Source: a virus
Lineage: Duplodnaviria; Heunggongvirae; Uroviricota; Caudoviricetes
Length of the DNA: 12,090 nt
IMG/VR virus record: IMGVR_UViG_2778261395_000003
Reading direction: 5' to 3' (one strand)
Shown here: positions 1-12,090 of the stretch, one piece after another
Layout of the letters: each line of letters starts with the position of its first letter
Position numbering within the stretch: position 1 is the first letter of the stretch
The notes under the pieces: model-generated
The model's input: the letters and a program-made list of their open reading frames with translations, nothing else
Told to the model about the DNA's origin: nothing
The model's database searches: none
Program-made: the position numbers and the translations under genes

Positions 1-318
1 ATGAAAAAGATAGCTGCTATATCATTAATTAGTATTTTTATTATGTCTGGTTGTGCTGTGCATAATGATGAGACAAGTATCGGTAAATTTGGTCTTGCAT
101 ATAAAAGTAATATTCAGCGTAAACTCGATAACCAATACTACACCGAAGCCGAAGCTTCTTTAGCCAGGGGTAGAATATCTGGTGCAGAAAATATAGTAAA
201 AAATGATGCAACTCATTTCTGTGTTACTCAGGGCAAAAAAATGCAAATAGTTGAGCTGAAGACAGAAGGTGTAGGATTACATGGTGTCGCTCGTCTGACA
301 TTCAAATGTGGAGAGTGA
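1..318 (+). CDS. yegR: Small lipoprotein (105 aa), host flanking gene, YegR-like
   Basis: Complete ORF with ATG at 1. N-terminal hydrophobic signal followed by lipobox-like M-S-G-C. Size and position next to the P2 remnant and yegQ match what I recall of E. coli yegR. GC content is host-like. Confidence 0.6.
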   Translation: MKKIAAISLISIFIMSGCAVHNDETSIGKFGLAYKSNIQRKLDNQYYTEAEASLARGRISGAENIVKNDATHFCVTQGKKMQIVELKTEGVGLHGVARLTFKCGE

Positions 319-477
319 GAATATTTTTTGGTAAGCGTCAAATATGCGCGTTCTGGCTGTGCGTAGCCGGAACCTGTGGGAGCACGATGCCGATAAGTGA
401 AAGGCATCGTGCTATGAAGGAGGATTCTATCGATGTGGTCAATGGAAGACGGTTACCAGAGATAGGGCTTATGCATA

Positions 478-504
478 AAAAAATAAGCCCGTGTAAGGGA
501 GATT
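478..504. repeat. attL core: 27-bp direct repeat AAAAAATAAGCCCGTGTAAGGGAGATT, identical to 10558-10584
   Basis: Exact 27-bp identity seen at both ends of the element. It lies immediately beyond the 3' end of the int gene, as expected for a P2-type attachment site. The length matches the 27-bp P2 core as I recall it. Confidence 0.75.
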
Positions 505-583
505 TAGGGTGTCACCAGTAGGGGCTTTCAACGGTACAATGCGGGTTTGAGCGGCATAAATTACCACTGAAAGCCCTTAAACG

Positions 584-1597
584 TTACTCTACTGTGGACA
601 CTGTGTGGACACTCTCGACCTCAGTACCACCTCTTAGCGGATTAAGAGAAATGGCGTCCTGAAGGTACTCTGGCGCAAAATGAGCGTAAACCATAGTTTG
701 CTCAATCCGCGTGTGACCTAGTATCCGTTGTAGCGTGATAATACTTCCTCCATTAATCATGAAATGAGTGGCAAAGCTGTGCCTTAGTGCATGTGTAGCT
801 TGCCCCATTGGCAAATCCGGTTTTATTGCTTTCATTGTTCGTCTGAAGCGAGGGTAATCAGCATCAGGGAATAAAAAACCTCGTTTGTTATCCGCGATCA
901 TTTTGGCAACAGCCTCTGAGATCGGGACGGTGCGTGGTTTGTTTGTTTTCGTTTTAACAAACGTGACGCGGTTATGGATGATATTTTCTGCTTTCAAACG
1001 AGCAGCTTCTCCCCAACGTGCTCCAGTACTCAGGCAAAGAATCGCAATCTTTTTGTTGTCGCCGTCAAGAGCAGCAAGCAGTAAGGCAATTTCTTCCTGC
1101 GTGAGATAGCCTGTGTCTGGTTTTTCCTCCTTAAGCCTTTTTGTCCCTCTGATAGGGTGCTCACCAAAGAATAACTCCGCTTCAATCAGGGCTGTAAACA
1201 TGCCGCTAATACATGTTAAATCACGATTGATACTCGAAGGTTTAATACCCTGACTTCTTCGGGTGGCGCAGTACTGGCTGATAAGCGATTTCGTAATTTG
1301 AAATGCGCATGGGTCATTCGTTATTTTTGTGAAGATTTCAATTTTTCCAAGATTAGATTTCCCATGCTCTTCGTGTTTACCCTTTAAATCCCACCAGATC
1401 TGTGTCAGCTCCGACAGACGTCGCTTGTCTGTTGGTTTTGATAGCCATTCTTTATTGTGGTGGTTGTACAACGTGTATTTCTCGAAAGCGACAGCTTCGC
1501 TTTTCTTATCAAACTTCCTACGGATGCGTTTTCCATTACGTCCAGTAGGGCGGATGTCCACTTCATATCGACCATCATCGAGTTTTTTGATTGCCAT
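584..1597 (-). CDS. int: Tyrosine integrase, P2 Int-like (337 aa)
   Basis: 337 aa, the size of P2 Int. C-terminal catalytic region contains R...HxLRHSFAT...LGH...Y (ATHALRHSFATHF, ILGHTRIEQTMVYAHF). GGAGGG Shine-Dalgarno upstream of the ATG. Sits adjacent to the att core and is co-oriented with the C repressor gene. Confidence 0.9.
   Translation of the reverse strand: MAIKKLDDGRYEVDIRPTGRNGKRIRRKFDKKSEAVAFEKYTLYNHHNKEWLSKPTDKRRLSELTQIWWDLKGKHEEHGKSNLGKIEIFTKITNDPCAFQITKSLISQYCATRRSQGIKPSSINRDLTCISGMFTALIEAELFFGEHPIRGTKRLKEEKPDTGYLTQEEIALLLAALDGDNKKIAILCLSTGARWGEAARLKAENIIHNRVTFVKTKTNKPRTVPISEAVAKMIADNKRGFLFPDADYPRFRRTMKAIKPDLPMGQATHALRHSFATHFMINGGSIITLQRILGHTRIEQTMVYAHFAPEYLQDAISLNPLRGGTEVESVHTVSTVE
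593..611. promoter_or_regulatory. Putative Int arm-type binding sites (P-prime arm): two direct TGTGGACA repeats 11 bp apart, inside the 3' end of int
   Basis: TGTGGACA at 593-600 and 604-611. A similar pair with the same spacing sits in the opposite arm at 10499-10517. The motif matches my recollection of the P2 Int arm-site consensus. Confidence 0.45.
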
Positions 1598-1712
1598 CAG
1601 AAAACCCTCCGAGTGGTGTGTTTTTTTGCGACTACTAATCGCTTTTTTCGTGGTGGCTGAAATTTAGCCACCAATAGTAGGCACTTGTGATGAATATATT
1701 CACGATGAATTG

Positions 1713-2012
1713 TTAACCAGTCTTTTGACCGGAGTGGGGCGACGTTGTTTCGTTTTGCCCAAAGTGTGCGAGAGCGGGCGCAATTTGCCCGGACTCAGGA
1801 GCGATCTGATTGGTCATGAACCATAAAGTGTATTTGGTGAATTGTGGGGTCTGCAGGATGTTCATCATGACATCTGTTGGAGGTGTTGAACGACCACTTT
1901 CATAGTAACTCAGCGTGCCATACGGAACCCCTGTTAAATCAGCAAGTTGTTGTCTGCTCAAATACTCTGATTTTCGCATTAAGACTATCTTCTCGCTTAT
2001 CGTGTTTGACAT
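1713..2012 (-). CDS. C: Immunity repressor, P2 C-like (99 aa)
   Basis: 99 aa, the size of P2 C. Divergent from cox across a 114-bp switch region carrying direct repeats. The N-terminal segment QQLADLTGVPYGTLSYYESG looks like a helix-turn-helix. Confidence 0.85.
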   Translation of the reverse strand: MSNTISEKIVLMRKSEYLSRQQLADLTGVPYGTLSYYESGRSTPPTDVMMNILQTPQFTKYTLWFMTNQIAPESGQIAPALAHFGQNETTSPHSGQKTG

Positions 2013-2046
2013 GGTGTTTAGATCTCAATAGTATTTAGTTTAGATG
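2006..2046 (+). promoter_or_regulatory. Early promoter Pe with flanking C-repressor operator half-sites (O1/O2)
   Basis: TTGACA (2006-2011) and TAGTAT (2029-2034) are separated by 17 bp. The direct repeat TTTAGAT at 2017-2023 and 2039-2045 (22 bp centre to centre) flanks the -10. A perfect TATAAT on the minus strand at 2084-2089 would give a convergent Pc with about 35 nt of transcript overlap. Confidence 0.6.
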
Positions 2047-2126
2047 TAGATTGTTTAGTGCTTGGATGTGGGCACTAAAAGGCATTATAAGACATTAAAC
2101 GCAATTCATGAGGGCTAGAGGACGAC

Positions 2127-2402
2127 ATGAGCAAGCAAGTAACACTCATGACTGATGCGATTCCTTATCAGGAGTTCGCAAAACTAATAGGAAAATCGAC
2201 AGGAGCGGTTCGTCGGATGATCGATAAAGGAAAGCTGCCTGTAATTGATATGACCGATCCACAATCAGCTTCAGGTCGTGCAGGTGAATATTGGGTATAC
2301 CTTCCGGCATGGAATAACGGACTAAAACTGGCTTATGAAAGCCGCCCTAAAGAGATTCGTGACGGCTGGTTGATGTGGTTAGGTCTCGGTGAACCACGTT
2401 AA
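2127..2402 (+). CDS. cox: Cox-like excisionase / Pc repressor (91 aa)
   Basis: 91 aa, the size of P2 Cox. First gene of the rightward early operon, with a GAGG ribosome-binding site. Confidence 0.8.
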   Translation: MSKQVTLMTDAIPYQEFAKLIGKSTGAVRRMIDKGKLPVIDMTDPQSASGRAGEYWVYLPAWNNGLKLAYESRPKEIRDGWLMWLGLGEPR

Positions 2403-2412
2403 GGAGAACCGT

Positions 2413-2583
2413 ATGAATGAGCCTCGTTGTATTGCTCAGTTACTGCGTAACGAAAGCCCCAGGGCGATTGACTTCACCATCACCCACGGTAAGGGGCGTA
2501 AGGGAATCATTATCCGCACCAAAAAACAGAGTCCGTTAAAAAAGGCTCTGACCTTTCTGAAAAGCCGGAGGGTATGGAAATGA
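2413..2583 (+). CDS. Small basic hypothetical protein in the P2 orf78 position (56 aa)
   Basis: ATG at 2413 is preceded by AAGGAG (2401-2406) at ideal spacing. The longer track ORF starting at 2389 has no ribosome-binding site. Lys/Arg-rich. Confidence 0.55.
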   Translation: MNEPRCIAQLLRNESPRAIDFTITHGKGRKGIIIRTKKQSPLKKALTFLKSRRVWK

Positions 2584-3080
2584 CAGTGATGACGCTCAAT
2601 CTCGTTGAAAAACAGCCAGCAGCTATGCGCCGGATAATTGGCAAGCATCTTGCCGTCCCTCGCTGGCAGGATACATGTGATTATTATAATCAGATGATGG
2701 AGCGCGAACGGCTAACGGTTTGCTTTCATGCACAGTTAAAACAGCGTCACGCAACGATGCGTTTTGAAGAAATGAACGACGTCGAACGTGAACGACTGGT
2801 TTGTGCAATTGATGAATTGCGTGGCGCATTCTCAAAACGCCGTCAGGTTGGTGCAAGTGAGTATGCATATATTAGTTTTTTAACAGTCAGTCAGCGTCGC
2901 ACTTTATTTATGCACGCACGACTGACTGAAAAAGAATTCAACCAGCCATACTGGCGAATTAATGAAGAATCATGTTACTGGCGTGATGCTTTGTTCCGTG
3001 CATTACGTGAATTATTCAGCATGTTTGAGTATGCACCGACAATTCTGACGTCGGTAAAACCAGAGCAATATCTGCATTAA
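2580..3080 (+). CDS. B: Replication protein B-like (166 aa from ATG 2580)
   Basis: Position between cox and A. 166 aa from the ATG at 2580, the size of P2 B. GGAGG at 2566-2570 favours 2580 over 2574. Confidence 0.75.
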   Translation: MTVMTLNLVEKQPAAMRRIIGKHLAVPRWQDTCDYYNQMMERERLTVCFHAQLKQRHATMRFEEMNDVERERLVCAIDELRGAFSKRRQVGASEYAYISFLTVSQRRTLFMHARLTEKEFNQPYWRINEESCYWRDALFRALRELFSMFEYAPTILTSVKPEQYLH

Positions 3081-3143
3081 ATAATTAACCAGAGTTTTTA
3101 ACGCACTTAATCGTGCGGGGCTTCTTTTTGCCTGGAGAAAGTC

Positions 3144-3368
3144 ATGCATACAGTTTCTGAAAATCAGTGCGGTATATACGCATTACTGCTGCAACAGGCC
3201 AGAACCGAAGCACAGGCCGACGCTGCGACGCGCTTTTCTTCTCATCTTGACGCCATGATTCGCCACATCACAAAGGCGGAGTTATCCCGCGTGGAGATAG
3301 TCGAGCTGCTCAGTCAGGAGTCGGAAAAATTTCACAATATCGGATTGTCTCGCGGGGAGGTGCTTTGA
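3144..3368 (+). CDS. Hypothetical early protein (74 aa), P2 orf80 position
   Basis: ORF with GGAGAAA ribosome-binding site. First of four tightly packed, overlapping small ORFs between B and A. Confidence 0.55.
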
Positions 3369-3670
3369 TGTCCTGTTCTCGTTCAGTTGTATTACTGAAT
3401 AACGCCTTAAAAATCGCCGTTATGAAAAATGGCGATTTATCTCTTATTCAACTTGGTCTTGATAAAGAAAAACGCGAAATAACTGAGTCTGTTATCGCGA
3501 TTTATCAGAACGAATTAAATCTCCTGTCTGATGTGGTCAATTTACTTGTTAAACGCGCTGTATTTCACAAGCAAATCTCCTCCGTGGATGAACTGACGAA
3601 GTTAACGACAGAAATTGCCAGCTATTGCGCTGATGAATTTAAGAAACTGAACGACAAAAGGAACTGGTAA
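3368..3670 (+). CDS. Hypothetical early protein (100 aa), P2 orf81 position
   Basis: ATG at 3368 overlaps the upstream TGA (TGATG), with GGGGAGG 9 nt upstream. The track's TTG start at 3365 is less likely. Confidence 0.55.
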   Translation: MSCSRSVVLLNNALKIAVMKNGDLSLIQLGLDKEKREITESVIAIYQNELNLLSDVVNLLVKRAVFHKQISSVDELTKLTTEIASYCADEFKKLNDKRNW

Positions 3671-3894
3671 TGCCGGACAACGTAGATTTCATTCAGGAAC
3701 AACAGGCTGAATTACTGGAGCGCCAGATTAACGCGGCAAGGGTAAAACATAGCGGTGTTTCTGCGCTGGTTTGCGAAGAGTGTGACGCGCTAATACCTGC
3801 TGCCCGTCGTGCGGCTTATCCGTCAGCCACGCGTTGTGTTTCCTGTCAGTCAGTCTTTGAAGCAAAAAACAAACATTACCGGAGAACGGCATGA
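3670..3894 (+). CDS. DksA/TraR-type C4 zinc-finger protein (74 aa), P2 orf82 position
   Basis: CEEC-x17-CVSC (C-x2-C-x17-C-x2-C) is the spacing of the zf-dksA/traR family. Start overlaps the upstream stop (TAATG). Confidence 0.6.
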   Translation: MPDNVDFIQEQQAELLERQINAARVKHSGVSALVCEECDALIPAARRAAYPSATRCVSCQSVFEAKNKHYRRTA

Positions 3895-4166
3895 GTATTC
3901 GTATTGAAATTGGCGAACGTTATGTCGTTACCAGTGACAGCTTTCAGTTTATTCTCCACGAGAAAAAGAGAGCGGAAAGCGGTAAAAACGCCGGTCAGGA
4001 ATGGCTGGCGGTGGTTGGTTATTACCCGAAATTAAGCCAGCTCGTTTCCGGCCTGATGCATCACGATATTCTGACCGGAAGCGCAAAGTCTTTTGCTGAT
4101 TTAAACGCGCAGGTTGAGCAACTCAGCAGGCGTTGTTCAGAGGCTTTGGGCTCATATGGCCGTTAA
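3891..4166 (+). CDS. Hypothetical early protein (91 aa), P2 orf83 position
   Basis: ATGA overlap with the upstream gene. Its end overlaps the A start, indicating translational coupling. Confidence 0.55.
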   Translation: MSIRIEIGERYVVTSDSFQFILHEKKRAESGKNAGQEWLAVVGYYPKLSQLVSGLMHHDILTGSAKSFADLNAQVEQLSRRCSEALGSYGR

Positions 4167-6423
4167 AGCCTCCGGGCGTTTTGTCCCTCCGTCAGCATTT
4201 GCCGCAGGCATCGGTAAGACGTTTACCGGTGCTTATGCATGGAACGCGCCACGCGAGGCTGTCGGGCGCGAAAGACCCCTTACACGTGACGAGATGCGTC
4301 AGGTGCAAGGTGTTTTATCCACGATTAACCGCCTGCCTTACTTTTTGCGCTCGCTGTTTACTTCACGCTATGACTACATCCGGCGCAATAAAAGCCCGGT
4401 GCACGGGTTTTATTTCCTCACATCCACTTTTCAGCGTCGTTTATGGCCGCGCATTGAGCGTGTGAATCAGCGCCATGAAATGAACACCGACGCGTCGTTG
4501 CTGTTTCTGGCAGAGCGTGACCACTATGCGCGCCTGCCGGGAATGAATGACAAGGAGCTGAAAAAGTTTGCTGCCCGTATCTCATCGCAGCTATTCATGA
4601 TGTATGAGGAACTCTGCGATGCCTGGGTGGATGCGCATGGCGAAAAAGAATCACTGTTTACGGATGAGGCGCAGGCGCATCTGTATGGTCATGTTGCTGG
4701 CGCTGCGCGTGCTTTCAATATTTCTCCACTTTTCTGGAAAAAATACCGTAAAGGACAGATGACCACGAGGCAGGCATATTCTGCCATTGCCCGTCTGTTT
4801 AACGATGAGTGGTGGATTAATCAGCTTAAAGGCCAGCGTATGCGCTGGCATGAGGCATTACTGATTGCTGTCGGGGAGGTGAATAAAGACCGTTCTCCTT
4901 ATGCCAGTAAACATGCCATTCGTGATGTACGTGCACGCCGCCAGGCAAATCTGGAGTTTCTTAAATCGTGTGATCTCGAAAACAAGGAAACCGGCGAACG
5001 CATTGACCTTATCAGTAAGGTGATGGGAAGCATTTCTAATCCTGAAATTCGCCGTATGGAACTGATGAACACCATCGCCGGTATTGAGCGTTACGCCGCC
5101 GCAGAGGGTGATGTGGGGATGTTTATCACGCTGACCACGCCGTCAAAGTATCACCCGACACGTCAGGTCAGAAAAGGCGAAAGTAAAACCGTCCAGCTAA
5201 ATCACGGCTGGAACGATGAGGCATTTAATCCAAAGGATGCGCAGCGTTATCTCTGCCGTATCTGGAGCCTGATACGCACGGCATTCAAGGATAATGATTT
5301 ACAGGCCTACGGTTTGCGTGTTGTTGAACCACACCACGACGGAACGCCGCACTGGCATATGATGCTTTTTTGTAATCCACGCCAGCGTAACCAGATTATT
5401 GAAATCATGCGTCGCTATGCGCTCAAAGAGGATGGCGACGAAAGAGGAGCCGCGCGAAACCGTTTTCAGGCAAAACATCTTAACCGGGGCGGTGCTGCGG
5501 GGTATATCGCAAAATACATCTCAAAAAACATCGATGGCTATGCACTGGATGGTCAGCTCGATAATGATACCGGCAGGCCGCTGAAAGATACTGCTGCGGC
5601 TGTTACCGCATGGGCGTCAACGTGGCGAATTCCGCAATTTAAAACGATTGGCCTGCCGACAATGGGGGCTTACCGTGAACTACGCAAATTGCCTCGCGGC
5701 GTCAGTATTGCTGATGAGTTTGACGAACGCGTCGAGGCTGCTCGCGCTGCCGCAGACAGTGGTGATTTTGCGTTGTATATCAGCGCGCAGGGTGGGGCAA
5801 ATGTCCCGCGCGATTGTCAGACTGTCAGGGTTGCCCGTAGCCCGTCGGATGACGTTAACGAGTACGAGGAAGAAGTCGAGAGAGTGGTCGGCATTTACGC
5901 GCCGCATCTCGGCGCGCGTCATATTCATATCACCAGAACGACGGACTGGCGCATTGTGCCGAAAGTTCCGGTCGTTGAGCCTTTGACTTTAAAAAGCGGC
6001 ATCGCCGCGCCTCGGAGTCCTGTCAATAACTGTGGAAAGGTCACCGGTTGTGATACTTCGTTACCGGCTCCCACACCTTCTGAGCACGCCGCAGCAGTGC
6101 TTAATCTGGTTGATGACGGTGTTATCGAATGGAATGACCCGGAGGTTGTGAGGGCGCTCAGGGGCGCATTAAAACACGGCCTGAGAACGCCAAATCGTCA
6201 GCAAAGAAACGGAAGCTCGTTAAAACCACATGAAATTGCACCATCGGCCAGACTGACCCGGTCGGAAAGAATGCAAATTACCCGTATCCGCGTTGACCTT
6301 GCTCAGAACGGTATCAGGCCGCAGCGATGGGAGCTTGAGGCGTTGGCGCGCGGGGCAACAGTAATTTATGACGGTGAGCGGTTTAGTTATGCTGTAAAAG
6401 ACGATTGGGTGATGTTTTCTTAA
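4156..6423 (+). CDS. A: Rolling-circle replication initiator, P2 gpA / phiX174 gpA superfamily
   Basis: HUH motif H-W-H-M-M-L at 5350-5367. Paired catalytic tyrosines in Y-I-A-K-Y-I-S-K (Y codons at 5503-5505 and 5515-5517), resembling the phiX174 A active site. Start placed at ATG 4156; the track's TTG at 4114 has no spacer after its Shine-Dalgarno-like sequence. Confidence 0.9.
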   Translation: MAVKASGRFVPPSAFAAGIGKTFTGAYAWNAPREAVGRERPLTRDEMRQVQGVLSTINRLPYFLRSLFTSRYDYIRRNKSPVHGFYFLTSTFQRRLWPRIERVNQRHEMNTDASLLFLAERDHYARLPGMNDKELKKFAARISSQLFMMYEELCDAWVDAHGEKESLFTDEAQAHLYGHVAGAARAFNISPLFWKKYRKGQMTTRQAYSAIARLFNDEWWINQLKGQRMRWHEALLIAVGEVNKDRSPYASKHAIRDVRARRQANLEFLKSCDLENKETGERIDLISKVMGSISNPEIRRMELMNTIAGIERYAAAEGDVGMFITLTTPSKYHPTRQVRKGESKTVQLNHGWNDEAFNPKDAQRYLCRIWSLIRTAFKDNDLQAYGLRVVEPHHDGTPHWHMMLFCNPRQRNQIIEIMRRYALKEDGDERGAARNRFQAKHLNRGGAAGYIAKYISKNIDGYALDGQLDNDTGRPLKDTAAAVTAWASTWRIPQFKTIGLPTMGAYRELRKLPRGVSIADEFDERVEAARAAADSGDFALYISAQGGANVPRDCQTVRVARSPSDDVNEYEEEVERVVGIYAPHLGARHIHITRTTDWRIVPKVPVVEPLTLKSGIAAPRSPVNNCGKVTGCDTSLPAPTPSEHAAAVLNLVDDGVIEWNDPEVVRALRGALKHGLRTPNRQQRNGSSLKPHEIAPSARLTRSERMQITRIRVDLAQNGIRPQRWELEALARGATVIYDGERFSYAVKDDWVMFS

Positions 6424-6506
6424 ACTGATGGCATCATGATACATTAACAAATCTGAAGCAATGCTTTAGTAGTCGTGCATTAATAACTTATAAGGAATTA
6501 TTATCG

Positions 6507-7829
6507 ATGAGTGCGTTAAGGGATGAAGTATCTATGAAGGTTGCGTTCTCTAATGGCATGATAAACAAATTATGCAAAAGTTTTTTTTATAGTCATGGTA
6601 AGGAGCAGCCTTGTATCCAAGTCGGTAAAGCATTAGAAGATTTTGTTTTTTGGCTTGCATATAATGATGAGGAGATTGCAAAATGTGCTAGTAGGTTATT
6701 AAAAGCATATGGCCCCCAATTAGGTATAAGTGACCTTCACAATGCGAAAAGATTATTGTTAGGTTTTTGTTCTGAAGCCTTCAATCGCATTGATGCTGAT
6801 TTTCTGTCGCTTAATCCTGATAAGATTTGTGTTGATGATATTATAACGCAAGTTCATAGAAAAAATCTTAGTGAGATGTTTAAGTATTATATACTTTCAC
6901 GAATAAAATCCTGTCCGTATATTTATAATCTTGGGTGTGCTGGCTTTGATGGGAAGCTTGAGCTTAGAGAAAATTTATTTTTATATGGCCCGGGGCTAGG
7001 GGTGGAATTAATTTCTGATATTAAAGACAAAACTGACATCAAGGTTCCTGTTGATTTTTATGATGATGAATATATGCGGCATAAACCAATTGGGAAATAT
7101 TTTCGACAGTCAAAATCCTGCTTGGTGGTGGCATATGCTTCATCAGAGGATAAAGCGGTGAAAATGTTTGATAGTTTGTTTGGAGCTTTATGTCTTGCGG
7201 TTGATAATCCTTTTGCGATTAATCGAGTTGCTGTTAATAATCTAGTTGAGTCTTTTGGTGTCGGGAAATATCATGAAAGTGAGTTTCGGGTGAATATTCC
7301 GTCTGTATATAATTTAAATATAACGGATTCAGCCTTGGCGATACTTACAAAAATACTTTCATCACCTGATAAAAGGATGTTGTCTGCTCTTTCCTTTATA
7401 GCGCACGGGTGGAGGGATGACAAACGTGAAAGGTTTTTGAATCAATTTATAGCATTGGATGCTATGTATGGAACCAATAATGGTAATAAAAATTCAATTA
7501 TTGGCGGTGTTTGCAGAGATGCGGCGAAAATTATTGATATTGATTCAAAAATAGGAATAATCTATGAGCTTAGGTGTAAGTTTGTTCATGGAGATATTTC
7601 ATCGTTATCTGATAATGATAGCTATCGAAAGTTTATTGATAGCTATGGCGTGGACCCTATTGTTTCTCTTTTTGAAATTCTTAAAGAATGCGTCCTTAAT
7701 TATAATGGTACTTACAAAACGCCAAAAGATGTTGGAAAGGCAGATAGGTCTATTTGCGTTCCTGCTGAGTTGCTTCCAGCGGTTGAGAGGATGATAGCGG
7801 AATACAGTGGAGTTAAAAAAACAAACTAA
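6507..7829 (+). CDS. AT-rich orphan cargo protein (440 aa); candidate defence or abortive-infection effector with an R-x4-H motif
   Basis: Long ORF with AAGGAA ribosome-binding site 9 nt upstream. GC is about 25-35 percent against about 55 percent in the adjacent A gene. Occupies the A-to-cos slot. No Walker A motif. C-terminal YELRCKFVHGD contains R-x4-H (R codon 7572-7574, H codon 7587-7589). Confidence 0.75.
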   Translation: MSALRDEVSMKVAFSNGMINKLCKSFFYSHGKEQPCIQVGKALEDFVFWLAYNDEEIAKCASRLLKAYGPQLGISDLHNAKRLLLGFCSEAFNRIDADFLSLNPDKICVDDIITQVHRKNLSEMFKYYILSRIKSCPYIYNLGCAGFDGKLELRENLFLYGPGLGVELISDIKDKTDIKVPVDFYDDEYMRHKPIGKYFRQSKSCLVVAYASSEDKAVKMFDSLFGALCLAVDNPFAINRVAVNNLVESFGVGKYHESEFRVNIPSVYNLNITDSALAILTKILSSPDKRMLSALSFIAHGWRDDKRERFLNQFIALDAMYGTNNGNKNSIIGGVCRDAAKIIDIDSKIGIIYELRCKFVHGDISSLSDNDSYRKFIDSYGVDPIVSLFEILKECVLNYNGTYKTPKDVGKADRSICVPAELLPAVERMIAEYSGVKKTN

Positions 7830-7970
7830 AGATGTTCTTTTTAGCCTCGCCTGCATTAGGTGCATAAATTTGCATTCATTTTCAAATATATCTTTTGACA
7901 GCGAGCACCAGAACAGGCGCTTGCCGGGGGGATGATGCACCTGCATTAAAACCGCCCCATGAAGCGGGCG

Positions 7971-7989
7971 GGCGAGGCGGGGAAAGCAC
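7971..7989. other. cos site: 19-nt P2/P4-type cohesive-end sequence GGCGAGGCGGGGAAAGCAC
   Basis: Exact match to the P2/P4 cohesive-end sequence as I recall it. It sits in a GC-rich non-coding island (about 7895-8040) between two AT-rich blocks, at the position expected between the A side and Q. Confidence 0.65.
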
Positions 7990-8122
7990 TGCGCGCAATG
8001 ATGTCAGTTTGAGGGCATCAGGCATGGGGACACTACACAGTTTCATTTTTGTTATTAATTGTTTATCATATAAGTGTTTGTTTTTTGAACGGCATGTCGT
8101 GTGCTATATGGAGTGAATAGAA

Positions 8123-8392
8123 GTGACTAAATTTGACAAAAAAAAAGCAATTTCTATTTTAACAGAAAAAAAAGCCTTGCTCCCATGTCATCGGTGTGGA
8201 AATTCAAAGTTCATCATTTTGGATGGCATATCATCACTTCCATTAATGGAAAATATGGAAATGATTGGTAGTATTGTTGTTGGCGGAATGAATGCTCCTG
8301 TATTACATGTGGCATGTGAGAATTGTGGTGCAGTTACTTCACATTTGCTTGGGGCACTTGGTTTAATGCCGGAGATTAAATCAAATGACTAA
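8123..8392 (+). CDS. Small zinc-ribbon protein (89 aa), first gene of a two-gene cargo module
   Basis: GTG start with GGAG 8 nt upstream. Two C-x2-C pairs (CHRCG and CENCG) about 40 residues apart. AT-rich. Overlaps the next gene by 8 nt. Confidence 0.6.
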   Translation: MTKFDKKKAISILTEKKALLPCHRCGNSKFIILDGISSLPLMENMEMIGSIVVGGMNAPVLHVACENCGAVTSHLLGALGLMPEIKSND

Positions 8393-8855
8393 GGGTGTTT
8401 TTTTCTCTGATGAAGGTAGTGGTAAAAAAAGTGCTGTCTTGCATGGGGCGCAGGTTACAATAAACCCTGATTCGCAATTTACAAAAAAGATAATTAGGCA
8501 GACTGAGGTTGATGTTATTGTGATAAGTGATGATAAACTTCATATAATTTTGACGAATTGCTTATCTAAAATTGCATCATTAAACCGCTGGTCAACACCT
8601 TTGGGTATTTTAATTACCTTGGCGGTAACTATGTTAACCACAAATTTTAAGAATTTTATTCTTCAGGATTCTGTGTGGGAGGCTGTTTTCTGGATGCTTA
8701 TTTTTTTTAATATTATCTGGTTGGTGAAAAACATTCCATATAGACACTTATTTTTAACTGTTTGTCATTCTATAGGGGTTCGTAAAGATAAAAAAAGAAT
8801 TAGTGATGTATACCACATTATAGATATAATTAAACAAGGTGATACACGCTTTTGA
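8385..8855 (+). CDS. Small membrane protein (156 aa) with two predicted transmembrane helices, second gene of the cargo module
   Basis: Two hydrophobic stretches (WSTPLGILITLAVTMLTT and AVFWMLIFFNIIWLV) after a roughly 65-aa soluble N-terminal region. ATG overlaps the upstream gene's end. AT-rich. Confidence 0.65.
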   Translation: MTKGVFFSDEGSGKKSAVLHGAQVTINPDSQFTKKIIRQTEVDVIVISDDKLHIILTNCLSKIASLNRWSTPLGILITLAVTMLTTNFKNFILQDSVWEAVFWMLIFFNIIWLVKNIPYRHLFLTVCHSIGVRKDKKRISDVYHIIDIIKQGDTRF

Positions 8856-8888
8856 TTTAATATCAATATTTGATTGAGTATATAATAA

Positions 8889-8911
8889 AGCCGCCTGAGT
8901 TTATGGCGGCT
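8889..8911 (-). terminator. Hairpin downstream of the Q remnant, possible intrinsic terminator
   Basis: 7-bp GC-rich stem AGCCGCC/GGCGGCT with a 9-nt loop. On the minus strand it is followed by UUUAUUAUAU, immediately 3' of the Q stop. Confidence 0.4.
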
Positions 8912-8931
8912 AATATAGGGTGTGTGCTAAG

Positions 8932-9936
8932 TCATAATGTGTATTTGTTGAATCTAATTATTTCTTCGCCAACCCATTCATTAAGGGCAATAAAGCGAGA
9001 TTGAATAGGAGTAAGCTCATTGCGGACAAAGACCTTTGCCACTTTCTCAATATCACCCAGCGACCCGACGTTCTCCGGCTTGCCGCCCATCAACTGAAAG
9101 GGGATGCGGTGCGCGTCCAGCAGGTCAGCGGCGCTGGCTTTTTTGATATTAAAAAAATCGTCCTTCGTTGCCACTTCACTGAGCGGGATAATTTTAATGC
9201 CGTCGGCTTTCCCTTGCGGGGCATAGAGAAACAAATTTTTAAAGTTGTTGCGGCCTTTCGACTTCACCATGTTTTCGCGAAGCATTTCGATATCGTTGCG
9301 ATCCTGCACGGCATCGGTGACATACATGATGTATCCGGCATGAGCGCCGTTTTCGTAATACTTGCGGCGGAACAGCGTGGCCGACTCATTCAGCCAGGCA
9401 GAGTTAAGGGCGCTGAGATATTCCGGCAGGCCGTACAGCTCCTGATTGATATCCGGCTCCAGCAGGTGAAACACGGAGCCGGGCGCGAAGGCTGTCGGCT
9501 CGTTGAAGGACGGCACCCACCAGTAAACATCCTCCTCCACGCCACGGCGGGTATATTTTGCCGGTGAGGTTTCCAGTCTGATGACCTTACCGGTGGTGCT
9601 GTAACGCTTTTCCAGAAACGCATTACCGAACACCAGAAAATCCAGCACAAAGCGGCTGAAATCCTGCTGGGAAAGCCACGGATGCGGGATAAATGTCGAG
9701 GCCAGAATATTGCGTTTGACGTAAATCGGCGAGCTGTGATGCACGGCAGCACGCAGGCTTTTCGCCAGACCGGTAAAGCGAAACCGGTCACGCAGAAGAA
9801 AGCGCCAAAAGTACCGGAAGCGCGCGAAGGTGAATACATGGCCGGTGAGGCTGACAACGTTTTTGCCCTGACCACGGTATATGCCACGAAAGCGCAGGCC
9901 ATGCGCGCCGCTCAGGCGAAGTGGGACAAACTGCAA
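8932..9936 (-). pseudogene. Q: Portal protein gpQ-like remnant, N-terminally truncated and fused to antisense D sequence
   Basis: The C-terminal roughly 250 aa look like genuine protein. The first roughly 80 codons are R/F-rich low-complexity sequence lying antisense to the D-fragment frame, so the true 5' part of Q is probably missing. Confidence 0.7.
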
Positions 9937-10155
9937 CGGGGCGTCGCGGAGTTCTCCATCAGCCTGGCTACCGGTCGGGCTGATATTTACACGGAAACAC
10001 CGGTTAAAGTGTCAGGCTTTAAGCGCGTCATAGACGAGCAGGACTGGACAATCACTAAGGTGACACATTTTCTGAATAATAGCGGCTTCACGACGTCCTT
10101 AGAGCTTGAGGTCAGGCTTTCTGATGTGGAGTACGAAACAGAAGATTATGAGTGA
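9682..10155 (+). pseudogene. D: 3' fragment of tail gene D (gpD C-terminal region); yegZ-like remnant
   Basis: The C-terminal sequence (VSGFKRVIDEQDWTITKVTHFLNNSGFTTSLELEV) matches the conserved end of P2 gpD-family proteins as I recall it. The ORF is far too short for a full D (about 387 aa) and sits directly upstream of ogr. The first in-frame ATG within the clearly D-like part is at 9838. Confidence 0.7.
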
Positions 10156-10236
10156 TGTCTTTTGTTTATCTGTTTGTTTTGTAAGGATAAATTAACTAAA
10201 ATGGCACTATCAACAAAACCGGAAGAGGTGCTCGCG

Positions 10237-10455
10237 ATGTTTCATTGTCCTTTATGCCAGCATGCCGCACATGCGCGTACAAGCCGCTATATCACTGACA
10301 CGACAAAAGAGCGTTATCACCAGTGTCAGAACGTGAATTGCAGCGCCACGTTCATCACCTATGAGTCGGTACAGAGATACATCGTGAAGCCGGGAGAAGT
10401 CCACGCCGTAAGGCCGCACCCGTTGCCGTCAGGGCAGCAAATTATGTGGATGTAA
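10237..10455 (+). CDS. ogrK: Ogr-type zinc-finger late-gene transcription activator (72 aa)
   Basis: C-x2-C-x22-C-x4-C (CPLCQ ... CQNVNC) zinc-binding motif. 72 aa from ATG 10237. Last gene before attR and followed by a strong intrinsic terminator. Confidence 0.85.
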   Translation: MFHCPLCQHAAHARTSRYITDTTKERYHQCQNVNCSATFITYESVQRYIVKPGEVHAVRPHPLPSGQQIMWM

Positions 10456-10467
10456 TTAGAAACAGGA

Positions 10468-10493
10468 AGCCCCTCAGTCGAGGGGCTTTTTTT
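10468..10493 (+). terminator. Rho-independent terminator of ogr
   Basis: 8-bp stem AGCCCCTC/GAGGGGCT with a 4-nt loop, followed by seven T residues. Confidence 0.7.
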
Positions 10494-10498
10494 GTCGA

Positions 10499-10517
10499 TG
10501 TGGTCAATGTGTGGACG
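10499..10517. promoter_or_regulatory. Putative Int arm-type sites (P arm): TGTGGTCA and TGTGGACG, 11 bp apart
   Basis: Same motif family and spacing as the pair at 593-611. A near-consensus IHF-like site (TTTCAATTTGTTG, 10540-10552) lies between these and the core. Confidence 0.4.
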
Positions 10518-10557
10518 TGAACAGAAATAAATCCTTTTATTTCAATTTGTTGTACGT

Positions 10558-10584
10558 AAAAAATAAGCCCGTGTAAGGGAGATT
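10558..10584. repeat. attR core: 27-bp direct repeat identical to 478-504, overlapping the 3' end of cyaR
   Basis: Exact identity with 478-504. Coincides with the terminator and U-tract of the sRNA gene. Confidence 0.75.
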
Positions 10585-10644
10585 ACACAGGCTAAGGAGG
10601 TGGTTCCTGGTACAGCTAGCATTTTATGGGTTATGTTTTTCAGC
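10558..10644 (-). ncRNA. cyaR: CyaR (RyeE) Hfq-dependent small RNA, 87 nt
   Basis: The minus-strand sequence GCUGAAAAACAUAACCCAUAAAAUGCUAGCUGUACCAGGAACCACCUCCUUAGCCUGUGUAAUCUCCCUUACACGGGCUUAUUUUUU matches CyaR as I recall it. It contains the CCUCCUUAG anti-Shine-Dalgarno-like seed and a terminal hairpin (CCUGUGUAA / UUACACGGG) with a U-tract. Located between yegQ and ogrK as in E. coli. Confidence 0.85.
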
Positions 10645-10694
10645 GAAACGGATGATAACCTTAATAAATGCAGCTGTATGTGATCGGTTTCTAA
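10645..10694 (-). promoter_or_regulatory. cyaR promoter with candidate class II CRP site
   Basis: TGTGA-N6-TCTAA (10679-10694) is centred about 42 bp upstream of the inferred transcription start at 10644. A TATCAT-like -10 lies at 10652-10657. CyaR is a known CRP-cAMP-activated sRNA. Confidence 0.4.
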
Positions 10695-10728
10695 GAATTT
10701 TCCATCCGGGAAAAATAATCGAAATTAA

Positions 10729-12090
10729 TCACTTACCGTGTGGGTTACGCGTGGTTTCCCCGGAGAAATTACGCATCAGCAGAGCGTAATTGAGCTCAAG
10801 ATCCTGCGGGACCGGGAGCCACACAGTATAACCATCGCCTGGTGCGACCGGCATCGCTTCACCTTTGGCGTTTTCCATGTGCTCAAGGGTAAAGTTAATG
10901 TTGCCTTGCGGCGTCATCAGCTCAAGGCTGTCGCCAACGGAGAATTTATTTTTCACCGCTACCGCCGCGAGGTCCCCCTTGCGCTCACCGGTAAACTCAC
11001 CAACAAACTGCTGGCGGTCAGAAACTGAATAACCGTATTCGTAGTTCTGATAATCGTCGTGAGTATGACGACGCAGGAAACCTTCGGTATAGCCACGATG
11101 CGCCAGACCTTCCAGAGTTTCCAGCAGGCTGGTATCGAACGGTTTGCCCGCAGCGGCGTCATCGATAGCTTTACGGTAAACCTGTGCGGTGCGTGCGCAA
11201 TAGTAGAAAGATTTAGTACGGCCTTCGATTTTCAGCGAATGCACGCCCATTTTGGTCAGGCGTTCTACATGGGCGATGGCGCGCAGATCTTTCGAGTTCA
11301 TGATGTAAGTGCCGTGCTCATCTTCAAACGCGGTCATATACTCGCCCGGACGCTGGGCTTCTTCGATCATAAACACTTTGTCGGTTGGCGCGCCGATACC
11401 CAGCGTCGGCTCAACATTTTGCACCGGAATCGGCTCGTACTTGTGTACGATGTTGCCAACGTCATCTTCTTTCCCTTCCTGGACGTTGTACTCCCAGCGG
11501 CAGGCGTTGGTGCAGGTACCCTGGTTCGGATCGCGCTTGTTGATATAGCCAGAGAGCAGGCAGCGACCGGAGTAGGCCATGCACAGTGCGCCGTGAACGA
11601 AGATCTCGATCTCCATATCCGGCACCTGATTGCGGATCTCTTCAATCTCTTCCAGCGACAGCTCGCGAGAGAGGATCACGCGGGTCAGGCCCATTTGCTG
11701 CCAGAATTTCACCGTCGCCCAGTTTACGGCGTTAGCCTGCACCGAGAGGTGGATCGGCATTTCAGGGAAGTGCTCACGCACCAGCATAATCAGCCCTGGA
11801 TCGGACATAATCAGCGCATCCGGCCCCATTTCCACCACCGGTTTCAGGTCACGGATAAAGGTTTTCAGCTTGGCGTTGTGCGGTGCAATGTTGACCACGA
11901 CATAAAACTTTTTCCCCAGCGCGTGGGCTTCATTGATGCCGAGCTGAAGATTTTCGTGGTTGAATTCGTTGTTGCGCACACGCAGGGAGTAACGCGGCTG
12001 GCCCGCATAAACAGCATCTGCGCCATAAGCGAAAGCGTAACGCATATTTTTCAGCGTTCCCGCCGGGGAAAGGAGTTCCGGTTTAAACAT
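10729..12090 (-). CDS. yegQ: Peptidase U32 family protein YegQ/RlhA (453 aa, complete)
   Basis: Contains the U32 signature E-x-F-x2-G-[SA]-[LIVM]-C-x4-G-x-C-x-[LIVM]-S (EIFVHGALCMAYSGRCLLS). The ATG is the last codon of the window on the minus strand. Host-like GC content. Confidence 0.9.
   Translation of the reverse strand: MFKPELLSPAGTLKNMRYAFAYGADAVYAGQPRYSLRVRNNEFNHENLQLGINEAHALGKKFYVVVNIAPHNAKLKTFIRDLKPVVEMGPDALIMSDPGLIMLVREHFPEMPIHLSVQANAVNWATVKFWQQMGLTRVILSRELSLEEIEEIRNQVPDMEIEIFVHGALCMAYSGRCLLSGYINKRDPNQGTCTNACRWEYNVQEGKEDDVGNIVHKYEPIPVQNVEPTLGIGAPTDKVFMIEEAQRPGEYMTAFEDEHGTYIMNSKDLRAIAHVERLTKMGVHSLKIEGRTKSFYYCARTAQVYRKAIDDAAAGKPFDTSLLETLEGLAHRGYTEGFLRRHTHDDYQNYEYGYSVSDRQQFVGEFTGERKGDLAAVAVKNKFSVGDSLELMTPQGNINFTLEHMENAKGEAMPVAPGDGYTVWLPVPQDLELNYALLMRNFSGETTRNPHGK

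Follow-up and report, generated by a model that had tools for sequence, protein, structure and literature searches.

A hotspot between gpA and gpQ has been described in P2-like phages (Rousset et al. 2022, PMC9122126), and a survey of defective P2-like elements reported that they keep near-identical defense cargo and lose mobility functions (NAR 2026, PMC13586616). At one P2 integration site of Escherichia coli, between yegR and yegQ, K-12 carries the ogrK-yegZ remnant; a literature search on ogrK/yegZ gave incidental mentions only. Here, we analyzed a 12,090-nt stretch of DNA (hereafter, "the window"), whose cargo region is the gpA-gpQ hotspot and in which a portal gene and a tail gene are fused on opposite strands. 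Very probably, the window records one microhomology-mediated illegitimate deletion in an integrated P2-like prophage, which would have left two promoterless fragments with an overlap of open reading frames (ORFs) as its by-product, followed by clonal vertical inheritance. The phenomenon is of a known kind, namely, a defective prophage in the course of ordinary prophage decay, and RefSeq already partly flags the portal pseudogene.

Structure of the prophage remnant

The ORF list and BLASTN comparison with phage P2 (NC_001895) showed that the window is a P2-like prophage remnant in the E. coli chromosome, flanked on the left by yegR (positions 1–318) and on the right by yegQ (10729–12090, minus strand). 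The left end of the remnant is a 27-nt attL core, AAAAAATAAGCCCGTGTAAGGGAGATT (478–504, plus strand), which is exactly repeated in direct orientation as the attR core (10558–10584, plus strand). This repeat is the attP core of P2: the P2 alignment begins at P2 position 24356, the start of the attP core, and ends at attR with P2 position 24382. P2 24356–30252 matched window positions 478–6374 with 97.6% identity and without gaps, covering att, int, C, cox, B, orf80–83, and A. Overall, the retained parts (478–6374, 9012–9779, and 9775–10584) were 97–98% identical to P2 and colinear with the prophage map. With its att repeats, its P2 gene order and similarity, and its missing essential genes, the element is a defective P2-like (Peduovirus) prophage.

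The remnant is 10.1 kb long and keeps the early region, cos, ogr, and hotspot cargo. The early region (584–6423) consists of int (584–1597, minus strand), C (1713–2012, minus strand), cox (2127–2402, plus strand), B, the homologues of orf80–83, and A (4156–6423, plus strand), and its gene calls were full-length and undamaged in E. coli GF4 and in one further locus that carry the same element. The 19-nt cohesive end of cos, placed from the P2 cosL/cosR annotation, lies at 7971–7989 (plus strand), where BLASTN aligned window 7942–7989 with P2 33546–33593 and window 7971–7996 with P2 1–26. At the right end, the late-gene activator gene ogr (ogrK in the PGAP annotation, 72 aa; 10237–10455, plus strand) is intact (PF04606, E-value 2e−21), together with its own promoter region; as the element has no late promoter for Ogr to activate, the gene encodes an orphan activator. 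The program-made ORF list gives ogr as a 97-aa, TTG-initiated ORF at 10162–10455, but the annotated, P2-homologous gene is the 72-aa, ATG-initiated ogrK.

A 40-nt direct repeat of 73% identity was also observed between 425–464, in the bacterial arm to the left of the attL core, and 10490–10529, in the phage P arm to the left of the attR core. This likeness suggests that the attachment site here may be the scar of an older P2-like attR.

Position and extent of the deletion

BLASTN aligned window 9012–9779 with P2 282–1049 (gene Q, minus strand) at 97.9% identity and window 9775–10584 with P2 23574–24382 (the 3′ end of D, ogr, and att) at 96.9% identity. The two matches share five nucleotides, AAAGC (9775–9779), corresponding to P2 1045–1049 on the Q side and P2 23574–23578 on the D side. 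The joint was placed by three-way alignments in which the window was set against the Q and D sides of P2 and of the KE50 prophage, and by the ends of the BLAST high-scoring pairs (HSPs) against P2, KE50, and ECC-1470. The window tracked Q as far as ...CCAGACCGGTAAAGC and tracked D starting at AAAGCGAAACCGGTCA...; therefore, the crossover lies within AAAGC at 9775–9779. Colinearity with P2 was broken only once, at these positions, and the intact prophages KE50 and ECC-1470, which occupy the same chromosomal site, gave the same break point. There were no inserted or filler bases between the HSPs and no insertion sequence (IS) element at the joint, and the flanks beyond AAAGC were otherwise unrelated. 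A sequence-only reading of the window had placed the joint somewhere within the overlap of the two ORFs, which is where it lies, and had considered that it could not be located without references; alignment to references fixes it to 5 nt.

The missing interval is P2 1050–23573, that is, 22,524 bp relative to P2, 21,320 bp relative to KE50, and 21,688 bp relative to ECC-1470. The break falls at position 2 of Q codon 58 and at position 1 of D codon 262. In P2, this interval carries genes P, O, N, M, L, X, Y, K, lysA/B/C, R, S, orf30, V, W, J, I, H, G, fun(Z), FI, FII, E/E′, T, and U; of Q, it includes codons 1–57 plus one base of codon 58, and of D, codons 1–261. All four Ogr-dependent late promoters also lie inside the deleted interval (pP/pO at approximately 3016–3127, pV at 10239–10308, and pF at 17555–17628 in P2 coordinates). 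The sequence-only reading had proposed a single deletion of the morphogenetic and lysis region, and the one colinear break relative to P2 and the two intact prophages, with the whole stretch from the start of Q up to D codon 261 missing, agrees with this. It was also right that D is reduced to its 3′ third (126 of 387 codons kept). Two of its details needed correction: the loss is 21.3–22.5 kb, depending on the reference, rather than about 20 kb, and the joint lies near the 5′ end of Q, at codon 58 of 339–344, rather than in its interior.

Under the formula P(k) = (k+1)(1/4)^k(3/4)^2, summed from k = 5 upward, we calculated that an overlap of 5 nt or more would arise at a random blunt joint with a probability of about 0.005. 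This low chance probability suggests that the microhomology was probably mechanistic, through slippage or end-joining without extended homology. With a short shared sequence, no filler, and no IS or site-specific recombination site at the joint, the event has the features of a microhomology-mediated illegitimate deletion. Judging from the shortness of the homology only, the mechanism may have been RecA-independent, by replication slippage or end joining.

The most probable course of events can be pictured as follows. A P2-like (Peduovirus) prophage would have integrated between yegR and yegQ, and a single illegitimate deletion at the 5-nt AAAGC, via replication slippage or end-joining, would have joined Q on the minus strand, at codon 58, to D on the plus strand, at codon 262. 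With this event, the prophage would have lost the beginning of Q; the genes for terminase, capsid, lysis, baseplate, fiber, sheath, tube, and tape measure; D codons 1–261; and the four late promoters, and the two fragments, Q′ and D′, would have remained as promoterless pseudogene fragments. The resulting 10.1-kb defective prophage would then have been inherited vertically within one E. coli clone. The deletion is probably recent, because Q′ carries no substitutions relative to the ECC-1470 portal, the clone is near-uniform, and the early region is gap-free relative to P2.

Other deletions at the locus and the number of steps

Other E. coli strains showed different deletions at the same site. 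Strain 18AR0366 has another Q-D fusion, with P2 628 joined to 23726. H6 and H5 have undergone two steps, with P2 1501 joined to 18756 and P2 19072 joined to 23677, and FT130 likewise has two, with P2 2117 joined to 5588 and P2 5953 joined to 23803. In K-12, the att core is joined to P2 23742 (the yegZ allele). The BLAST overlaps at the joints of these strains were 2–6 nt. All of them keep the 3′ end of D and ogr, and those other than K-12 also keep the early region and hotspot cargo (SIR2+ATPase, reverse transcriptase). The late-region deletions in these strains are independent of that in the window. The right-hand end points (P2 23574, 23677, 23726, 23742, and 23803) all fall in the last third of D, although this clustering is apparent and the sample is biased by retrieval. 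Specifically, the comparison strains were picked by their coverage of the window, and such a sample cannot support either end-point clustering or selection.

These strains bear on whether the joint in the window arose at once. Because later deletions wipe out earlier joints, and because H6 and FT130 demonstrate two-step decay at the same locus, a single step is favored rather than proven. Moreover, the closest relative varies by segment, with KE50 closest for the cargo between A and cos and ECC-1470 closest for the insert between cos and Q; none of the relatives compared was the exact parental prophage. This makes the element a mosaic, whose D/ogr side could in principle derive from another element. 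It is accordingly conceivable, but in our judgment unlikely, that several deletions in succession produced the joint, or that two P2-like elements, such as an incoming phage and an older D′-ogr remnant, recombined before a deletion took place. The two-step decay of H6 and FT130, the mosaicism relative to KE50 and ECC-1470, and the resemblance of 425–464 to the phage P arm, which hints at an earlier occupancy of the site, would all be compatible with such a history. However, P2 colinearity is broken at one place, no fragments of the intervening genes are left over, and there is no filler DNA, so that parsimony favors one event. In addition, a K-12-type remnant cannot have been the donor of the D side, as it keeps less of D (from window position 9943) than the window does.

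Origin of the two overlapping ORFs

The minus-strand, Q-like ORF (8932–9936, 334 aa) and the plus-strand, D-like ORF (9682–10155, 157 aa) overlap by 255 nt (9682–9936), close to the approximately 250 bp of the sequence-only reading. The 334-aa ORF matched Phage_portal (PF04860, E-value 9e−14) in Pfam and portal_PBSX (TIGR01540, E-value 1e−68) in NCBIfam. The 157-aa ORF matched Phage_GPD (PF05954) over the C-terminal profile positions 199–304 of 305 only, and it also matched the tail protein families phrog_52 and phrog_12925. In BLASTP comparisons, residues 54–334 of the Q-like ORF aligned with portal residues 59–339, with 100% identity to the 339-aa portal of ECC-1470 and 95% identity to P2 gpQ, whereas its first 53 residues, which include 10 arginines and 8 phenylalanines, had no similarity to portals. 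Residues 32–157 of the D-like ORF aligned with gpD residues 262–387 at 98% identity. An intact portal would align over its full length, including the N-terminus, and an intact gpD hub would contain the whole GPD domain; the 334-aa ORF covered portal residues 59–339 only and the 157-aa ORF covered gpD residues 262–387 only. The full-length alignment to intact portals that would have argued against a truncated Q was looked for by BLASTP and was not found, and the protein comparison proposed by the sequence-only reading thus showed both genes to be truncated, the alignments stopping at portal residue 59 and gpD residue 262. PGAP likewise annotates a pseudogene, "phage portal protein, missing N-terminus", at window positions 8932–9777, and lists the 157-aa ORF as protein WP_395763454.1.

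Each ORF can be divided at the joint. The portal fragment Q′ (8932–9779, minus strand) runs from the second base of codon 58 through codon 339 to the stop, having lost codons 1–57 together with the first base of codon 58, and it is preceded by a spurious, R/F-rich 5′ extension of 52 codons (9780–9936, minus strand), which is the codon-aligned antisense of D codons 263–315. The tail gene fragment D′ (9775–10155, plus strand) consists of the last 126 codons of D (262–387) and the stop, and it is preceded by a spurious 5′ extension of 31 codons (9682–9774, plus strand), which is the codon-aligned antisense of Q. In other words, beyond the joint, each reading frame continues on the codon-aligned antisense of the other gene, and the R/F-rich peptide results from reading the K/E/A-rich gpD segment 263–315 in antisense. 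The sequence-only reading had explained the whole Q frame of the overlap in this way; the explanation holds for the 157 nt at 9780–9936 but not for 9682–9779, where the Q frame is genuine Q coding sequence and the D frame is the antisense one.

In a codon-aligned antisense frame, stops arise only opposite TTA, CTA, and TCA codons. These codons are rare in the two genes: in this frame, there are 3 stops per approximately 1.1 kb in P2 D and likewise in P2 Q, compared with 12–25 in the frame with the most stops, the counts there for full-length D and Q being 21 and 25. The D frame is open upstream as far as window position 9568 and the Q frame as far as 10011, and ATG at 9682 and TTG at 9936 are the first start codons within those open stretches. 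The 255-nt overlap therefore exists because each frame runs into a stop-poor, codon-aligned antisense frame of the other gene. Seen from these frame relationships, the overlap is a by-product of the joint and needs no special explanation.

The fragments themselves are probably silent. A promoter and terminator scan of positions 8800–10700 yielded no excess over shuffled sequence and nothing placed to drive Q′ or D′. It is very unlikely that the chimeric ORFs are functional, for example, as dominant-negative decoys against superinfecting P2-like phages, even though both frames are open and undamaged, PGAP calls the 157-aa ORF a protein (WP_395763454.1), and assemblies of E. coli and Salmonella often contain C-terminal fragments of gpD. 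The late promoters have all been deleted and no promoter-like site rises above chance, while the N-terminal extensions are the antisense read-through expected from the frame relationship. Furthermore, the D fragments of other strains differ widely in length, many of the cluster members are partial sequences at contig ends, and the clone is too uniform for any selection test.

Authenticity and distribution of the joint

The window was 100% identical to contig NNZA01000002.1 of GCA_002487245.1 over all 12,090 nt, and its positions 4156–12090 were 100% identical to E. coli GF4 (NZ_CP172217.1), this being the portion that follows the start of that record. When a 201-nt query was used against 5,426 complete E. 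coli genomes, the joint occurred in one piece in one of them, GF4, which is not a K-12 strain. With an 801-nt query, H5 and H6 reached 88% coverage through two separate pieces, which reflect their different two-step deletion. The chimeric 157-aa protein, which is possible only with this joint, was found on at least 10 contigs. The identical 30-nt joint sequence was present in seven loci, namely, GF4 and six fetched from independent assemblies (NCBI GCA_002487245.1, GCA_050920175.1, and GCA_031093765.1; Logan ERR6160685, ERR11478669, and SRR33526725), and these six were 99.96–100% identical to the window over 2.8–12.1 kb. The exact 30-nt joint had no matches in JGI metagenome contigs or among GTDB species representatives, where E. 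coli is represented by one genome.

As the same joint recurs in independent, near-identical assemblies, it is real rather than a misassembly and marks one clone. It is thus scarcely conceivable that an assembler created the joint by collapsing an intact prophage, as might be thought from its presence in only one of the 5,426 complete genomes, since the seven loci with the same 30 nt come from independent assemblies and sequencing runs, and in GF4 there is no further copy of Q or D to collapse.

Hotspot cargo and the cos-Q insert

Between A and cos, a 440-aa cargo gene (6507–7829, plus strand) stands in place of the P2 genes orf91/tin/old. It is annotated by PGAP as a "HEPN domain-containing protein" and matched phrog_23812, a family of unknown function, end to end. 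The intact KE50 prophage carries the same gene. In the Logan assembly ERR11478669, it is split into 132 and 317 aa by a 1-nt indel.

Between cos and Q, there is a non-P2 insert of approximately 1 kb (7997–9011), which comprises two overlapping ORFs and a diverged Q 3′ end. The first ORF (8123–8392) encodes 89 aa with a zinc-ribbon-like CxxC...CxxC pattern, and the second (8385–8855) encodes 156 aa with hydrophobic segments and matched phrog_32870, also of unknown function. The insert had no match in P2 and none among 50,697 phage records at blastn sensitivity, and it was found in 8 of the 5,426 complete E. coli genomes, among them ECC-1470 with its apparently intact prophage. It is possibly a two-gene hotspot cargo. 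Scans of the three cargo ORFs with Pfam, NCBIfam, and PADLOC returned nothing significant.

The insert comes with a Q 3′ end that is diverged but alignable, so that the portal has 339 aa instead of 344. We considered whether this end (8932–9011) might be a second truncation; this was ruled out because ECC-1470, whose prophage is apparently intact, has the same 339-aa variant of the portal. By this comparison, the Q 3′ end in the window is a natural variant.

It may be, although we consider it improbable, that the late-region deletion is more than decay and turned the prophage into a stable 10.1-kb "mini-P2" (int, cox, C, B, A, ori, cos, ogr, and cargo) that could still excise and replicate, as a satellite-like element or a domesticated defense island. 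If so, a superinfecting P2-like helper could package the remnant via cos, for example, as multimers, and selection for such a state would lie behind the independent late-region deletions that other strains show at the locus. Within GF4, the joint query hit a single place in the record and there was no second copy of Q or D; therefore, this strain has no resident helper prophage of this type.

The single-deletion reading has practical consequences. The 157-aa "hypothetical protein" WP_395763454.1 and the 334-aa ORF should be annotated as chimeras of a deletion joint and not as new genes, and the prophage should be scored as defective. The locus also offers a cleanly mapped case of microhomology-mediated prophage decay that spares the early region and the defense-hotspot cargo, and the P2 site at yegR/yegQ has been degraded independently in several lineages, including K-12.

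Comparison with known P2-like elements

The ogrK-yegZ remnant of K-12 has the same site, orientation, and right end as the window (a D 3′ fragment, ogr, the attR core, and yegQ). In K-12-derived and HB101 chromosomes, however, window positions 1–495 are contiguous with position 9943 onward, the deletion starting within the attL core and extending to D codon 318 (P2 23742). What K-12 retains is approximately 70 codons of D (yegZ) and ogrK; in the window, 126 codons of D are preserved along with the whole early region, cos, cargo, and Q′. On its left, the yegZ deletion of K-12 ends within the 27-nt att core (478–504) rather than in flanking phage DNA, and the K-12 remnant is thus an att-core-to-D fusion with an overlap of about 3 nt. 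The sequence-only reading had suggested comparison with the K-12 yegZ region to distinguish an ancient, shared joint from a strain-specific one, and the K-12 joint (495|9943) proved to be a different one. We also considered the joint in the window as the ancestor of the K-12 yegZ allele and found no support for this, given that the joints differ and that only one near-identical clone carries the GF4-type joint, although a later deletion could formally have wiped out a GF4-type joint. On the positions of the joints, the two events are unrelated, and the one in the window belongs to its own lineage and is not an ancient, shared event.

The intact prophages KE50 and ECC-1470 and phage P2 (NC_001895) share 97–99% nucleotide identity with the window and have an identical gene order and att core. 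KE50 has the 440-aa cargo gene in common with the window, and ECC-1470 has the cos-Q insert and the 339-aa portal variant. In contrast to the window, all three retain the 21.3–22.5 kb from the Q 5′ end to D codon 261. The defective elements surveyed in PMC13586616 resemble the window in that their morphogenetic genes have been lost and their cos-proximal hotspot genes are intact. However, replication genes were among those more often pseudogenized in that survey, whereas the early, replication, and integration genes of the window are all intact. Those elements also hold defense cargo, of which the cargo in the window, although it gave no PADLOC hit, is a putative counterpart.
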